A model generated the notes under the pieces. That model saw only the letters and a list, made by a program, of their open reading frames with translations, was not told the DNA's origin and did not search any database. This document shows, piece by piece, positions 6,903-10,882 of a stretch of DNA of 10,882 nucleotides (position 1 is the stretch's first letter; each line of letters starts with the position of its first letter). Source of the stretch: a virus (Duplodnaviria; Heunggongvirae; Uroviricota; Caudoviricetes); the IMG/VR virus record IMGVR_UViG_2681813320_000023; one strand, given 5' to 3'. The translations under genes were made by a program, and so were the position numbers.

Positions 6903-7109
6903 ATGGCTGAAGAGAAAAAAGGCGGTGTTTCGGTGTACATAAGCCCCGACATCGTGAAGGCGCTCAAGGAACGCCACCAGCAGAACGTAAAAGCAGGCAT
7001 TGCGGCAGGACTTGATCCGCTGGCGATGGTTGAGCCGTCAACAGGCTGGCAGGTACGCGCCTATTTACGCGCGGCGCTGGGTATGAATCAGGTTCACGGG
7101 GGTGAATAA
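6903..7109 (+). CDS. Hypothetical protein (68 aa), first gene of the head module, translationally coupled to the capsid gene
   Basis: ATG 6903 with AAGAGGA upstream. Stop TAA 7107-7109 overlaps the capsid ATG 7109 (TAATG). No recognisable family; position suggests a capsid-assembly accessory. Confidence 0.5.
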   Translation: MAEEKKGGVSVYISPDIVKALKERHQQNVKAGIAAGLDPLAMVEPSTGWQVRAYLRAALGMNQVHGGE

Positions 7110-8164
7110 TGACAGTAAAAGCAATAGCACTTAACACTAACCAGCTTTTTGCGTACCTGAATCGCGAGGATATTGCGGAATTTAAATTCAGTCCGCTGTT
7201 TACCGCGCTGTTTTTCCCGAACGTGGCGACATTCAACACACAGGACATCATGTTAGATAACCTGGATATTGAAGAAGTCACTATGTCGGCGTTTTGTTCG
7301 CCTATGGTGGGTAGCCAGGTTCAGCGCGATAAAGGGTACGAAACAAGCATTATTCGCCCTGGCTACATGAAGCCAAAACACGAAATCGATCCATTAAAAA
7401 CAATAATGCGCATGGCTGGAGAAGATCCAGCACAGCTTAACGACCCTACCTACCGCCGTATGCGCCTGATTACTGGCAACATGCGCCGCCAGATAAACGC
7501 CATTAAAGCGCGCGTGGAATGGCTGGCGGTGAATGCGATAACGACCGGAAAAAACATCATTGAGGGCGAAGGCATAGAACGCTATGAAATCGACTGGAAG
7601 ATCCCAAGTAAAAATATCGCCAGACAGGGACATGGCAAAAAGTGGTCAGAGGCAGATAAGGAAACACACGATCCAATCTATGACATCGAGCTTTATGCTG
7701 ATCAGGCTGGTTGCCCCGCAAACGTCATGATTATGGGCGCTGAGGTATGGCGAACGTTACGCAGCTTTAAAAAATTCCGTGAGCTGTACGATCTTTCCCG
7801 TGGTTCAGAGTCCGCCGCAGAGCTGGCCTGTAAAAACCTGGGCGAAGTGGTGAGCTTTAAAGGCTATCTGGGCGATATTGCCCTTATCGTCTATTCCGGC
7901 AAATACGCCGACAGCGACGGCACAGAAAAATATTTCCTTGAGCCTGATTTGCTTGTCCTGGGCAACACCAACAATAAAGGGCTGGTGGCCTATGGTGCGA
8001 TTATGGATCAGGACGCAGTAAGAACGGGGGCAACGCAAAACATGTACTACCCGAAAAACTGGATTGAGGACGGAGATCCGGCGATTGAGTACGTGCAGAC
8101 GCACAGCGCACCGCAGCCGGTTCCGGCAGATATTCGCAAATTTGTTACTGTCAAAATTGATTAA
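7109..8164 (+). CDS. Major capsid protein, phage lambda gpE-like (351 aa)
   Basis: Colinear similarity to lambda gpE along the whole length, from memory: EFKFSPLFTALFF vs KFKFDPLFLRLFF; PGYMKPKHEIDP vs PGYVKPKHEVNP; EDPAQLNDPTYRRMRLI vs EDPQNLADPAYRRRRII; GDIALIVYSGKY vs GDVAIVVYSGQY; YYPKNWIEDGDPAIEY vs RYPKNWVTTGDPAREF. RBS GGGGGTG upstream, stop TAA 8162-8164. Confidence 0.85.
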   Translation: MTVKAIALNTNQLFAYLNREDIAEFKFSPLFTALFFPNVATFNTQDIMLDNLDIEEVTMSAFCSPMVGSQVQRDKGYETSIIRPGYMKPKHEIDPLKTIMRMAGEDPAQLNDPTYRRMRLITGNMRRQINAIKARVEWLAVNAITTGKNIIEGEGIERYEIDWKIPSKNIARQGHGKKWSEADKETHDPIYDIELYADQAGCPANVMIMGAEVWRTLRSFKKFRELYDLSRGSESAAELACKNLGEVVSFKGYLGDIALIVYSGKYADSDGTEKYFLEPDLLVLGNTNNKGLVAYGAIMDQDAVRTGATQNMYYPKNWIEDGDPAIEYVQTHSAPQPVPADIRKFVTVKID

Positions 8165-8175
8165 CGGGGGATTCT

Positions 8176-8511
8176 ATGGACACTCCATACATTGAGTTAT
8201 TTGCAGGCAGTCAGCAGGTCGCCACGACGCTGGTACATTTTGCCGCTGATGCTGGCGTTATCCAGGAATTTACCCCGCTGATGCTGGCGGACAATGGCGA
8301 GTTTAAGCCGTGGGATGGTCAGGAATCTGGCAAGGCTGTTTATCTGACTTCGTACCCCGTGGACACGTCAAAGCAGAAATCAGCACAGTGTTACAAGACG
8401 GGGATATTTAATATCGCCGCCGTAAACTGGCCTGAGAGCGCCGACACTGACGCGAAAAAATGCGCCGCCTTTGCGGGTTCTGGCGTATCCGTTCAGCCGC
8501 TGGCGCGATAA
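8176..8511 (+). CDS. Head decoration protein, phage lambda gpD-like (111 aa)
   Basis: C-terminal half matches lambda gpD from memory: TPLMLADNGEFKPWDG vs TPLMLDTSSRKLVAWDG; YKTGIFNIAAVNWPESADTDAKKCAAFAGSGVSVQ vs [46 protein letters not shown] upstream of ATG 8176. Confidence 0.8.
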   Translation: MDTPYIELFAGSQQVATTLVHFAADAGVIQEFTPLMLADNGEFKPWDGQESGKAVYLTSYPVDTSKQKSAQCYKTGIFNIAAVNWPESADTDAKKCAAFAGSGVSVQPLAR

Positions 8512-8523
8512 GCAGGGGAAACG

Positions 8524-8937
8524 ATGGCAACGAATGAAAGCATCATGGCGCTACCGCTGGCGAGTAAATTTAAAGCAGAAGCGCGGGCAATGGCTGACAG
8601 AGGTTTATCAACCTACGAGGCCGTATATCAACTCAACAAACTGGAAGAACAGGACAAGCCGCGCGCTGATGCGATTATGGCGCTTCATGAACATAACGAC
8701 TATCAGCCGCTGTTACGTGCAATGGCAAACGTGCCATGTATTAGCGTCGATAATGCTCGTGAAATCCTGAACATGACCATAGAGCAGGAGCGCCCAAAGG
8801 TTGCACCAGAGCTTACCGCAGCCTTTGAAAACTTTATGGACATGCACAGCCCGCAAGCCGTATCAGCTGGCATGGCGTACGATGGCAGAAACCAGGGCGA
8901 TGACGGCGACATCGATCGCATGCTGAAAACCATCTGA
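8524..8937 (+). CDS. Hypothetical acidic protein (137 aa), last gene of the head module
   Basis: RBS AGGGG 5 nt upstream of ATG 8524. Stop TGA 8935-8937 followed directly by a terminator and the cos site. No recognisable family. Confidence 0.55.
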   Translation: MATNESIMALPLASKFKAEARAMADRGLSTYEAVYQLNKLEEQDKPRADAIMALHEHNDYQPLLRAMANVPCISVDNAREILNMTIEQERPKVAPELTAAFENFMDMHSPQAVSAGMAYDGRNQGDDGDIDRMLKTI

Positions 8938-8943
8938 GACAAG

Positions 8944-8967
8944 GCCGGAGAAATCCGGCTTTTTTTT
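8944..8967 (+). terminator. Rho-independent terminator (GCCGGA-GAAA-TCCGGC + T8), near-identical to the hairpin at 6670-6691
   Basis: Perfect 6-bp stem with GAAA loop and eight T, 7 bp after the stop of ORF 8524..8937. Confidence 0.6.
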
Positions 8968-9060
8968 ACGGGTCCTTTCCGGCATATGGACCCGTTACGG
9001 GGCGGCGACCTCGCGGTTTTTCGCTATTTATGAGCCTTTTCAGGGGGGTGGTGGTGGTTT
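8968..9060 (+). other. Lambda-type cos site: cosQ-like and right-end-like sequence (8968-8999), cosN 12-nt cohesive-end sequence GGGCGGCGACCT (9000-9011), followed by a diverged cosB-like region
   Basis: ACGGGTCCTTTCCGG...GTTACG | GGGCGGCGACCTCGCGG(T)TTTTCGCTATTTATGA matches the remembered lambda genome ends almost base for base. Sequence from about 9035 to the TerS start differs from lambda cosB. Confidence 0.75.
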
Positions 9061-9144
9061 TGTTGTTTGCTCTATCTTTATGAATGAAAAGGGAAAGATG
9101 CAAACAATACACCAACCTGAAGCAGTAATTAAGTTGGTGTATTA

Positions 9145-9687
9145 ATGAAATCGCACCTGATGAACAAAAAAAACATGGCGAAAAGCTGCCGTGTAAGTGC
9201 GACAGCGTTCGACAAGTGGGGAGTGACTCCCGTTGAACGTAAAGGCCGTGAGGCGTTTTACGATGTTGCCAGCGTGATAGACAATAGGGTTAACAATGCA
9301 ATTAGCCAGCTTACAAACGACAAAGGCGATATTGATGATGATGAACTCTTACGAGTCAGGATCAGATTACTGACAGCACAGGCGGAGGCGCAGGAACTTA
9401 AAAACGAGCGCGATCGCGGTGACGTGATCGATACTGAGTTTTGCCTGTACGCGCTTTCAAAGCTGGCGAGTCAGATTTCATCAATCATGGACAGCCTCCC
9501 GCTTACTATGCAAAGGAGCTTCCCACAGATTACCCCCGCCATGCTGGATAGGCTTAAAAGGGAAGTGGTTAAAGCCTGTAATGCCAGTGCCAGAGTTGCC
9601 GACAACCTCCCACAGATACTGGCTGATTACTTGAAAGAAACAACCGGAAACGTACCGGAAAAGTTGCAGCCGAATAAAGATAAGTAA
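9145..9687 (+). CDS. Terminase small subunit, lambda Nu1-like (180 aa as tracked; possibly 175 aa from the MNKK start at 9160)
   Basis: C-terminal half aligns strongly to lambda Nu1 from memory: RIRLLTAQAEAQELKNERDRGDVIDTEFCLYALSKLASQISSIMDSLPLTMQRSFPQI vs RLTRAQADAQELKNARDSAEVVETAFCTFVLSRIAGEIASILDGLPLSVQRRFPEL. N-terminus MNKKNMAK... is more weakly similar to Nu1 MEVNKKQLAD.... Located about 135-150 bp downstream of cosN, as in lambda. Confidence 0.8.
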   Translation: MKSHLMNKKNMAKSCRVSATAFDKWGVTPVERKGREAFYDVASVIDNRVNNAISQLTNDKGDIDDDELLRVRIRLLTAQAEAQELKNERDRGDVIDTEFCLYALSKLASQISSIMDSLPLTMQRSFPQITPAMLDRLKREVVKACNASARVADNLPQILADYLKETTGNVPEKLQPNKDK

Positions 9688-9698
9688 CGTAGTACGCT

Positions 9699-9980
9699 AT
9701 GACTGAATCCGAAATACTGCGATTAATCCGCCGCGTCTCTGGAATCAGCCAGCAGGCTGACGAACAGACCACGCAGCCGGACAGCGTGACAGCCGAAAAC
9801 TATGCGCGTGTTGTTGCTGAGGTGATGCGCCGTGATGGTATAGAACTTAATGGCGTGGATATGCGCAACATACGAACCAGAGTTCTTGAGTTGCTGGCCT
9901 ACCGTCGCCGCGTGGAGATGTATCGGGAGAAGGAGAAAATAACGTACCACTGGAAGAAGCCGGAGCGGTTGCGGCGGTAA
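9699..9980 (+). CDS. Hypothetical protein (93 aa) downstream of the TerS-like gene
   Basis: ORF begins 12 bp after the TerS stop, with no strong RBS. Arg-rich, helix-like sequence. No recognisable family. Confidence 0.4.
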   Translation: MTESEILRLIRRVSGISQQADEQTTQPDSVTAENYARVVAEVMRRDGIELNGVDMRNIRTRVLELLAYRRRVEMYREKEKITYHWKKPERLRR

Positions 9981-10275
9981 CTGGTTGATATTCCCGACGG
10001 ACCAAAAATGGGTGGCTACATCCCTCGCTTCTGAGGACTGTTAACAAGCTGCCTGAAAGACAGTCACAAACTACGAAATTTTCGCAGTTTAATTAATGAT
10101 CAGCTTAATCGCTAACCCGCTGATATTTTCGGAAACCTCAATTTGAGGAAGTCGGCGCGGTAACTCGCTGAACTTTAAGCAAAGCGCAAAATTGCGCTTG
10201 CTGAATAATCATTATGATTACGCAGATGATTAAGGAATGACCGAAGGCGGAAATTCGCCTGTGGTTAATGGGGGA

Positions 10276-10538
10276 GTTGCAGATCTGCAACTCGACCATG
10301 AAACTACGGAAACTACCCGTAGTTTGGGTAGTAAGAGTAACACCCAGATTTTGGGTCTTACTCGTGATACCCAAATTTGGGGTATCAGTGGCAACCATAA
10401 CGACTTTCGTTACGGTTGATGCTTTTACCCCATTGGGGGAAAGGTATTACGATAATCATAACACCTACCGAACAGGTAAAGCCCACCAGCCTGATTAACG
10501 TTTAACCGGAAAAAAATTCCGGTAGGTGGGGATCCCCA
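10276..10538. repeat. Cluster of distinct palindromes and hairpins in non-coding DNA
   Basis: GTTGCAGATCTGCAAC (10276-10291, perfect 16 bp); CTACCC-7 nt-GGGTAG (10313-10331); nested hairpin AGTAAGA..ACCCA-gattt-TGGGT..TCTTACT (10330-10362); GATACCCAAATTTGGGGTATC (10366-10386); AACCATAACG-actttcgt/CGTTACGGTT (10393-10417); CCCCATTGGGG (10428-10438); ACCGGAA-aaaaa-TTCCGGT (10505-10523); TGGGGATCCCCA (10527-10538). Confidence 0.4.
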
Positions 10539-10717: not shown

Positions 10718-10882
10718 TCAACGTGTTATGTGAAATAAGTTATATATAACAGCAATAAATAATGCGAGAATAAACGGCACGATGATCTCGGCGGCAAAAC
10801 GGATACCGCAGAGAATAATGACCAGCATTCCCAACATAATGACGATTTTTAGGCCATTGAGCGTGATGATCGGCTTTGCCAT
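10718..10882 (-). pseudogene. tqsA: 5' fragment of a host AI-2E-family transporter gene (TqsA-like N-terminus), in-frame fusion ending in island-derived sequence (54 codons, start codon at window end)
   Basis: Minus-strand translation from the ATG at 10882-10880: [45 protein letters not shown], then IYNLFHITR and stop (TGA 10720-10718). The first ~45 residues match the remembered N-terminus of E. coli TqsA/YdgG; similarity is lost abruptly, as expected at an insertion junction. Not searched. Confidence 0.4.

Follow-up and report, generated by a model that had tools for sequence, protein, structure and literature searches.

How does a phage satellite that encodes a small terminase subunit (TerS) and no large subunit (TerL) bring its own DNA into virions built by a helper? 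The question is raised by a 10,882-nucleotide stretch of viral DNA (IMG/VR record IMGVR_UViG_2681813320_000023, Caudoviricetes), here called the window, in which a terS gene lies directly downstream of a cos site. From its gene content and synteny, the window is a predicted ~10-kb phage-inducible chromosomal island (PICI) of the EcCICFT073 family, with tqsA as its insertion site. Below we describe the gene and its protein, the cos site with which it travels, and the explanations that compete for its function. In the reading we favor, and consider probable, the gene encodes a satellite replacement TerS that would direct a helper's TerL to the island's own cosB, the logic of the TerS of Staphylococcus aureus pathogenicity islands (SaPIs) transferred to a cos system.

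The terS gene and its protein

The gene and the layout of its product are as follows.

9145..9687, plus strand: terS, encoding a 180-aa Nu1-family small terminase; ATG start; identified from the open reading frame (ORF) list and from profile and BLASTP matches
Residues ~6-47: N15-type DNA-binding region, predicted winged helix
Residues 48-72: linker
Residues 73-125: helical core
Residues 126-166: variable C-terminal region
C-terminal end: 14-residue tail

The protein matches the Pfam family Phage_Nu1 (PF07471) with E=2.3e-23 and 83 bits (gathering cutoff 30), and phrog_57, 'terminase small subunit', with E=2.9e-53 over residues 1-175. In BLASTP comparisons it aligned with lambda Nu1 (E=1e-34, 35% identity) and with N15 gp1 (E=2e-53, 46% identity, a single one-residue gap). 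RefSeq annotates the same 543-bp gene as 'terminase small subunit' in related genomes, while NCBIfam held no model matching TerS or the neighboring proteins. These pairwise and profile alignments with lambdoid Nu1 proteins place family membership well beyond chance, as a preliminary description made from the sequence alone had proposed, and terS encodes a full-length member of the Phage_Nu1 family. The whole ORF is under purifying selection, with ratios of nonsynonymous to synonymous substitution rates (dN/dS, Nei-Gojobori) of 0.15-0.31 between the window gene and homologues 75-95% identical to it.

The ORF that follows terS encodes a 93-aa protein, not TerL, and both the ORF list and the profile scan show terL to be absent from the window. 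The missing adjacent terL is a feature of context rather than of the family, and is expected for a satellite.

With respect to the start codon, previously left ambiguous between ATG 9145 and ATG 9160, the upstream ATG 9145 is favored because in an Enterobacteriaceae homologue Leu stands in place of window Met6, leaving the upstream ATG, preceded by GAGGA, as the only one, because the N-terminus of N15 gp1 likewise reaches 3-4 residues upstream of LLNK, and because the RefSeq calls are 543 bp long. Residues 1-5 are kept as M-K/T-x-H-L among homologues. This start lies at bp 146 from the cohesive end; in lambda and N15 the corresponding TerS starts lie at bp 191 and bp 89, respectively (PMC9026076).

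Identities to lambda Nu1 and N15 gp1 were then read region by region from multiple alignments, in window residue numbering.

Residues 6-47 (DNA-binding region): lambda Nu1 38-40%, 16 gapped columns; N15 gp1 26/42 = 62%, no gaps
Residues 6-72: lambda Nu1 20/67 = 30%, 17 gapped columns; N15 gp1 49%
Residues 73-125 (core): lambda Nu1 55%; N15 gp1 51%
Residues 126-166: lambda Nu1 32%; N15 gp1 32%
Residues 73-166: lambda Nu1 42/94 = 45%, no gaps; N15 gp1 43%

The preliminary description had contrasted a C-terminal stretch of about 100 residues that aligns closely with lambda Nu1 with a diverged N-terminal DNA-binding region. Relative to lambda this asymmetry is real, with 45% ungapped identity over residues 73-166 against 30% with 17 gapped columns over residues 6-72, but it is modest and had been overstated. 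The C-terminal similarity sits in the core, and the last ~40 residues reach only 32%. The N-terminal region, moreover, is no orphan: at 62% ungapped identity to N15 gp1, the window DNA-binding domain is by these alignments of the N15 gp1 type and not novel.

The core is the segment best kept with respect to phage TerS proteins (49-66% identical), and the helical core of the lambda family has been described as an oligomerization domain (PMC9026076). The C-terminal ~40 residues of lambda TerS, proposed as the TerL-binding domain (PMC9026076), align with window residues 126-166; here the window protein is also 32% identical to 21-like TerS and 51% identical to the TerS of phage PhiR5_1.

N15 gp1 is the best phage homologue, with 46% identity overall, 62% in the DNA-binding domain and deletions relative to lambda that the two proteins share. 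It differs in that terL follows and overlaps gp1, whereas window terS has no adjacent terL, and in that the C-termini of N15 gp1 and lambda Nu1 are almost the same. Lambda Nu1 belongs to the same family, and shares with window TerS the conserved core, a place downstream of cosQ-cosN-cosB and an identical cohesive end. Relative to lambda, the window DNA-binding domain carries three deletions amounting to 16 residues, identity over the C-terminal 41 residues is 32%, and no gene A adjoins.

The cos site and satellite relatives

Upstream of terS, the following elements were identified.

8941..8968, plus strand: intrinsic terminator-like hairpin and T-run (stem 8941-8962, 9 pairs)
8965..8980, plus strand: cosQ-like element TTTACGGGTCCTTTCC, read directly and conserved in the anchored alignment
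8998..9013, no strand assigned: cosN with flanking symmetric bases; the 12-base lambda cohesive end GGGCGGCGACCT lies at 9000-9011
9035..9144, plus strand: satellite-type cosB, with GGTGGTGGTGGT at 9047-9058 (bp 48-59), then TTTGTTGTTTG at 9059-9070

The cohesive end GGGCGGCGACCT is identical to positions 1-12 of the lambda left end and has one exact match in the window, where 0.05 would be expected by chance. The element TTTACGGGTCCTTTCC agrees with the published cosQ of lambda, phage 80 and EcCICFT073 (PMC6739421 Fig. S1). The predicted terminator is a strong one; it closes the capsid-like operon and its T-run extends into cosQ; its sequence is kept in EcCICFT073, IHE3034 and LZHX12.

When cos sequences were aligned by anchoring at bp 1 of the cohesive end, the window cos matched lambda to about bp 35 and diverged beyond. 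Over bp 36-160 the window cosB shares 46-56% identity with the cosB of lambda-type, 21-like, PhiR5_1 and PhiR12_2 phages, and values of 56% or less look like background for that comparison. None of the lambda R3, R2 and R1 sequences was found in the window cosB, which differs from that of lambda in having no R3-I1-R2-R1 arrangement. The earlier proposal of an island-specific cosB directly upstream of the gene agrees with this combination of a lambda-like cosQ and cosN with a cosB that is at most 56% identical to any of the four phage types.

The satellite cosB has a recognizable core. The sequence GGTGGTGG at bp 51-58 is common to the window and IHE3034, to N921 and to Enterobacteriaceae satellites, with GTTGTT next, near bp 60-68. 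In one satellite (L009) GGTGGTGG is replaced by GGTGGGCG, and in LZHX12 its position is shifted by 1 bp. Within the window the motif occurs only once. This core is kept across satellites whose TerS proteins are 58-100% identical, and it occupies the position of R3 in N15 and lambda. In N15, R3 has been mapped to bp 48-59, with bp 54-59 most important (PMC4669245). N15 R3 reads GAGGTTGTTGTT, in which GTTGTTGT is in register with the satellite GGTGGTGG; the two differ in that N15 has (GTT)n and the window (GGT)n, with G in place of the middle T of each triplet. Both cosB regions are short and without an integration host factor (IHF) site or R2 and R1, N15 having a single R3. Differences from N15 include the cohesive end, which in the window is that of lambda, and an inverted copy of the cosB motif inside terS, the N15-style rR2, which was searched for in window terS and not found. 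The predicted recognition helices are SVQAFDKW in N15 and SATAFDKW in the window, and we hypothesize that this difference and the change from GTT to GGT together constitute a specificity switch.

A relation to the cos1 of islands with an rppA gene was also observed. The satellite motif GGTGGTGGT (9047-9058) is the reverse complement of a ACCACCACC run at bp 55-63 of the RppA-type cos1 (EcCICFT073 7605-7621), and Murialdo and Feiss proposed that ACCACCACC run as the contact site of Rpp (PMC9026076). The two may be related R sites that face opposite ways, or simple repeats may coincide here by chance.

A relative embedded in a helper-type prophage is found in E. coli N921, where a satellite whose TerS is 82% identical to that of the window interrupts the portal gene of a lambda-type prophage. 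The TerS (NohA) and the TerL N-terminus of this prophage are essentially those of lambda, and its cos carries lambda-type R3, R2 and R1. The satellite cosQ-cosN resembles that of the host prophage, its cosB is of the satellite type, and its TerS is 38% identical to the lambda-type counterpart. A shared cosQ and cosN with a private cosB would be the expected pattern if TerL must contact the same sites as in the helper while TerS contacts a site of the satellite's own. The N921 pair thus points to lambda-like phages as probable helpers of such satellites. Helper-embedded TerS-type satellites were also observed in the major capsid gene (Enterobacter, Citrobacter); a helper-embedded PICI example in the literature is described as lacking terS (PMC10111431).

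The distribution of homologues separates the gene from those of phages. Among 50,697 phage records the closest match was N15 (46%). All nearer homologues that were examined (58-82%, and 74-99% in E. coli islands) sit in satellites; those of 169-170 aa (58-59%), from Enterobacter and Citrobacter, belong to satellites that lie within the capsid gene of lambda-like prophages. No terL follows terS in any satellite copy examined, and by these comparisons the TerS clade is, as far as its members can be placed, satellite-specific. The cos-terS module is present at a coverage of at least 80% in 763 of 5426 complete E. coli genomes, among them those of O157:H7 strains. The rppA/rppB-type module was found in 97 complete E. 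coli genomes, a count from which the divergent rppC is missed by megablast, so that the TerS cassette is ~8 times commoner than the rppA/rppB-type module.

Conservation along the protein is uneven. Among satellites, identity is highest in the DNA-binding region (79-98%) and lowest over residues 126-166 (34-61%). When the window is compared with N921, synonymous divergence (dS) is 0.11 in the DNA-binding region and saturated (~3) in residues 126-166, a contrast that indicates recombination within terS. One tentative reading is that the C-terminal segment may be swapped to fit different helpers, although the N921 satellite TerS is only 41% identical to the TerS of its own host prophage over residues 126-166. 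The C-terminal domain singled out no helper for the window island; its closest phage match was PhiR5_1 TerS at 51%.

A probable replacement TerS and competing explanations

If the window gene encodes a replacement TerS, packaging would proceed in three steps. After induction of a lambda-like helper, the N15-type winged helix would bind the (GGT)n/GTTGTT element ~48-69 bp from the cohesive end. The helical core would then assemble TerS, and the C-terminal region would recruit the helper's TerL. Finally, TerL would nick the common cosN and fill virions built by the helper with island concatemers. The yield of the helper would be predicted to fall as well, through competition for TerL. Here we infer cosB binding, TerL recruitment and helper interference from family membership, domain layout, genomic context, conservation and selection, all of which the analysis showed.

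The earlier proposal that TerS recruits the helper's large terminase and steers it to the island's own cos fits the EcCICFT073-family context, the purifying selection, the lack of terL after terS in the satellite copies examined and the N921 pair. Its more specific form, recruitment of lambda gpA, is not established, because the C-terminal segment is closest to PhiR5_1-type TerS and has 32% identity to lambda. An N15-specific terminase also packages lambda DNA (PMC4669245); binding of lambda cosB by window TerS would therefore not refute island-directed packaging.

Several observations weigh against a replacement TerS. The putative TerL-binding segment has only 32% identity to lambda, N15 and 21-type TerS, and 51% to that of PhiR5_1. 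Over its first ~30 residues, TerL diverges strongly among lambda/N15, 21-like and PhiR5_1/PhiR12_2 phages, and these several N-terminal classes leave no single partner class for window TerS. No sigma-70-like promoter was predicted between the upstream terminator and terS (8941-9145). EcCIIHE3034 and EcCI18098, islands that encode TerS, gave no more than ~10^2 transductants/ml, mostly <1, after mitomycin C treatment of their own strains (PMC6092414 Table 1). An AlphaFold2 model built with a 28-sequence alignment, of which only the secondary-structure pattern was used, was of low confidence (mean predicted local distance difference test score, pLDDT, 62; predicted template modeling score, pTM, 0.29). 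Foldseek against the PDB returned MerR-family and RacA DNA-binding domains as its top matches, at a non-significant E~0.2. Within residues 5-57 (pLDDT 62-76) the AlphaFold2 model places a strand at 5-7, helices at 8-14 and 21-25, strands at 31-33 and 36-40, and a helix at 41-57, with long helices after residue 57; the helices and the strand pair are consistent with a winged helix-turn-helix, in keeping with the assignment by homology though no separate proof of it. With respect to expression, transcription of terS may come from readthrough or from a helper-dependent activator.

The alternative that survives best is an Rpp-like mode, which we regard as unlikely. Window TerS would then form mixed oligomers with helper TerS through the core or the DNA-binding domains, retarget them to the island cosB and poison recognition of the phage cos, with helper terS essential. 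Rpp proteins are 135-153 aa long and combine a TerS-like winged helix with an unrelated coiled-coil C-terminus (PMC6739421; PMC9026076); they bind helper TerS and cannot recruit TerL without it (PMC6739421; PMC9026076), and RppA has been shown to set cosB specificity in EcCICFT073 (PMC6739421). The window gene occupies the same slot as rppA, with the same cos layout, just downstream of the island cos1 in syntenic islands. A TerS-like N-terminal winged helix, present in Rpp, is also predicted in window TerS, and the predicted role, cosB specificity for a lambda-like helper, is the same. The core through which mixed oligomers might form is the segment best kept with phage TerS. Additionally, RppA matches phrog_57, over residues 7-47 only; rppA and terS may therefore be evolutionary alternatives, and this limited match is in line with a published proposal of a TerS origin for Rpp, with the window locus as a candidate ancestral or alternative state.

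The sequences of the two proteins tell against a shared mode. BLASTP found no pairwise similarity between window TerS and RppA (E=1.4). RppC in the PDB was missed by the single window sequence (phmmer) and by a satellite-only profile at E<=10, with the RppC-TerS entry 6HN7 in the library, and by a family profile that included phage TerS at E<=1. The satellite-only profile did reach 6HN7 chain B (lambda TerS 1-98) with E=0.007; the PDB search with the single window protein gave no meaningful match, and lambda TerS was reached by profiles only. Window TerS is 180 aa long, aligns collinearly with Nu1 and gp1 through to the C-terminal ends of both and keeps the Nu1 core and C-terminus, whereas Rpp proteins dimerize through their coiled coil and depend on helper TerS, as they have no TerL-binding C-terminus (PMC9026076). 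At the dimer interface of the lambda DNA-binding domain, I11-F12-G13 align with S-C-R in window TerS, and the DNA-binding domain of RppA is of the lambda-length type rather than the N15 type. In sequence and length, window TerS is thus not Rpp-like as judged by these comparisons, and its complete C-terminus argues against an Rpp-like mode as the sole one.

The preliminary description had called the protein a functional analogue of SaPI TerS or of the packaging-redirection proteins of PICIs. The SaPI part holds as a logic, a TerS homologue with a distinct site. Window TerS and SaPI TerS_S are both satellite-encoded TerS homologues that would work with a helper TerL on the satellite's own packaging site. 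In contrast, SaPI TerS_S belongs to an unrelated TerS family, packaging is by the headful (pac) mode, and SaPIs encode Ppi against phage TerS. No Ppi equivalent was identified among the neighboring ORFs of unknown function in the window, and no test aimed at Ppi was made.

It is improbable that terS is instead an evolutionary leftover of a lambda- or N15-like head module, retained with the gpE- and gpD-like genes while the island rides on a phage-type cos. In EcCICFT073, transfer stayed within ~2-3 fold of the parental level when the neighboring capsid-like or decoration-like gene (c1499 or c1500) was deleted (PMC6092414 Table 1), a second cos with a phage-type cosB is present in TerS-type islands such as IHE3034, and transfer of IHE3034 is negligible (PMC6092414), all of which a leftover would accommodate. 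Such a gene would not be expected to show purifying selection over the whole ORF, an intact module in 763 of 5426 complete genomes, or a DNA-binding domain kept at 79-98% together with the adjacent cosB motif across genera. The window island, moreover, has no second cos, and the satellite-type cos beside terS is therefore its only packaging site.

That the window is a decayed prophage with its own TerS is very improbable: lambda-like capsid, decoration and TerS genes do adjoin a lambda cos, but the element is ~10 kb long with a P4-type integrase, an AlpA-like regulator, a D5-type primase and PerC, carries no genes for TerL, portal, tail or lysis, shares its gene order with EcCICFT073, a satellite validated by experiment, and has relatives that are discrete insertions inside intact prophage genes.

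These comparisons can be joined, tentatively, in a wider reading that may well fail, in which one slot holds two alternative cassettes: a common, modular TerS form that packages with helper TerL, and a derived Rpp form. The satellite-specific N15-like domain would be co-inherited with the (GGT)n cosB, the C-terminal TerL-binding segment would be exchangeable by recombination, and Rpp would be the form derived after loss of the TerS core and C-terminus. The 2019 paper on Rpp asked where Rpp originated (PMC6739421), and terS in the same slot of syntenic islands is a concrete candidate. If the wider reading is true, most E. coli PICIs of the EcCICFT073 family would package by an undescribed cos-type route in which helper TerS is dispensable.

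A satellite-encoded TerS is in itself a known strategy. The strategies described in the searched literature are carriage of the helper's cos, SaPI TerS with Ppi, and Rpp, and among Gram-negative PICIs the redirection of packaging is understood in mechanism for Rpp alone. We found no functional study of a Nu1-type TerS of Gram-negative PICIs in the searched literature, which left out most subscription journals, so that this absence is not proof. Given the prevalence of the cassette, the helper, the mechanism in a cos/lambda-type system and the relation to Rpp are worth testing. If window TerS replaces helper TerS, the rules for mobilizing phages and for PICI-based delivery vehicles would differ from those of the Rpp model. 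Additionally, N15 R3 and the satellite motif (GTT/GGT), with their differing recognition helices, offer a possible compact system for studying DNA-recognition specificity in TerS.

The island, its packaging slot and its relatives

Around the cos-terS module, the window contains the following features.

1-1218: P4-type integrase
1593-1781: AlpA-like regulator
3749-5862: DUF4222 protein and D5-type primase
6391-6663, plus strand: PerC-family transcriptional activator (Pfam E=8e-45)
7109-8164: gpE-like capsid protein
8176-8511: gpD-like decoration protein
8524-8937, plus strand: 137-aa ORF
9699..9980, plus strand: 93-aa ORF of the function-unknown family phrog_1561 (E=5e-56)
10718-10882, minus strand: N-terminus of TqsA (autoinducer-2 transporter), at the right window end

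The window thus has an integrase, an alpA-type regulator, a primase/replication module and a cos, and is without terL, portal, tail and lysis genes. It is syntenic with EcCICFT073 through the major capsid protein, the decoration protein, the 137-aa ORF, cos, rppA or terS, and the 93-aa ORF, the 144-aa rppA of EcCICFT073 filling the slot held by window terS. The 93-aa ORF is kept throughout the islands of this family, downstream of rppA in EcCICFT073 and of terS in IHE3034, LZHX12 and N921, and its putative membership of the packaging module is only positional. The lambda region equivalent to 8524-8937 is presumably the Nu3 scaffold, and capsid-, decoration- and scaffold-like genes may occur together in the window island. 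In E. coli LZHX12, the island cuts tqsA into two annotated pseudogene fragments.

The closest described relative is EcCIIHE3034 (NC_017628.1 920272-930825), whose TerS (WP_000835278.1) is 100% identical to that of the window over residues 1-174. It has the same architecture, with cosQ, cosN and satellite cosB identical to those of the window; it differs in its site, cspD-clpS rather than tqsA, and in an inverted cos2 downstream of terS that has no counterpart in the window. The gene is therefore already recorded: in 2018 Fillol-Salom et al. listed the islands of IHE3034 and 18098 as ones that 'encode TerS', and those of CFT073 and O42 as ones that do not (PMC6092414), and the identical protein was so named there without functional study. 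Induction by a helper phage and transfer have been shown only for EcCICFT073, and EcCIIHE3034 was not mobilized by resident prophages (PMC6092414).

The last 6 TerS residues read QPNKDK in the window and LQKKGE in IHE3034. At window 9660-9700, the ~250-bp region that carries cos2 in IHE3034 and LZHX12 is missing. The window-type junction also occurs in other genomes, some O157:H7 included, with matches that reach query position 699.

The window has one cos only. Second, inverted cos sites were observed in EcCICFT073 (cos2 at 8100-8308) and in EcCIIHE3034 (cos2 at 10190-10380). Over bp 36-160, the cosB of EcCICFT073 cos2 is 92% identical to that of PhiR12_2, and IHE3034 cos2 is 73% identical to PhiR5_1 and 21-like cosB. 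This suggests that cos2 would let a second helper class package the island directly, a possible answer to the question of two cos sites in PMC6739421. In LZHX12, an 878-bp segment between inverted cosN sites (12342-13219), with the satellite cosB, terS and the phage-type cosB, is flipped relative to IHE3034, to which it is 96% identical as reverse complement and 54% in the same orientation. This implies recombination between the inverted cos repeats.

The O157 Sakai element Sp7, which is excised and packaged (PMC2669165), was considered as a TerS-type island and rejected, as it has its own portal, protease, TerS and TerL. Sp7 (Sakai 34711-50000) is a capsid-forming island at the same attachment site, roxA-phoQ. 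The occupant of this site varies by strain: Sp7 in Sakai, and in O157 PV15-279 a TerS-type island with a RepA helicase. In CFT073 an Rpp-type island adjoins phoQ, the integrase side lying outside the comparison. In the Sakai capsid-forming island at roxA-phoQ, the gene equivalent to that for PerC is annotated as pchE.

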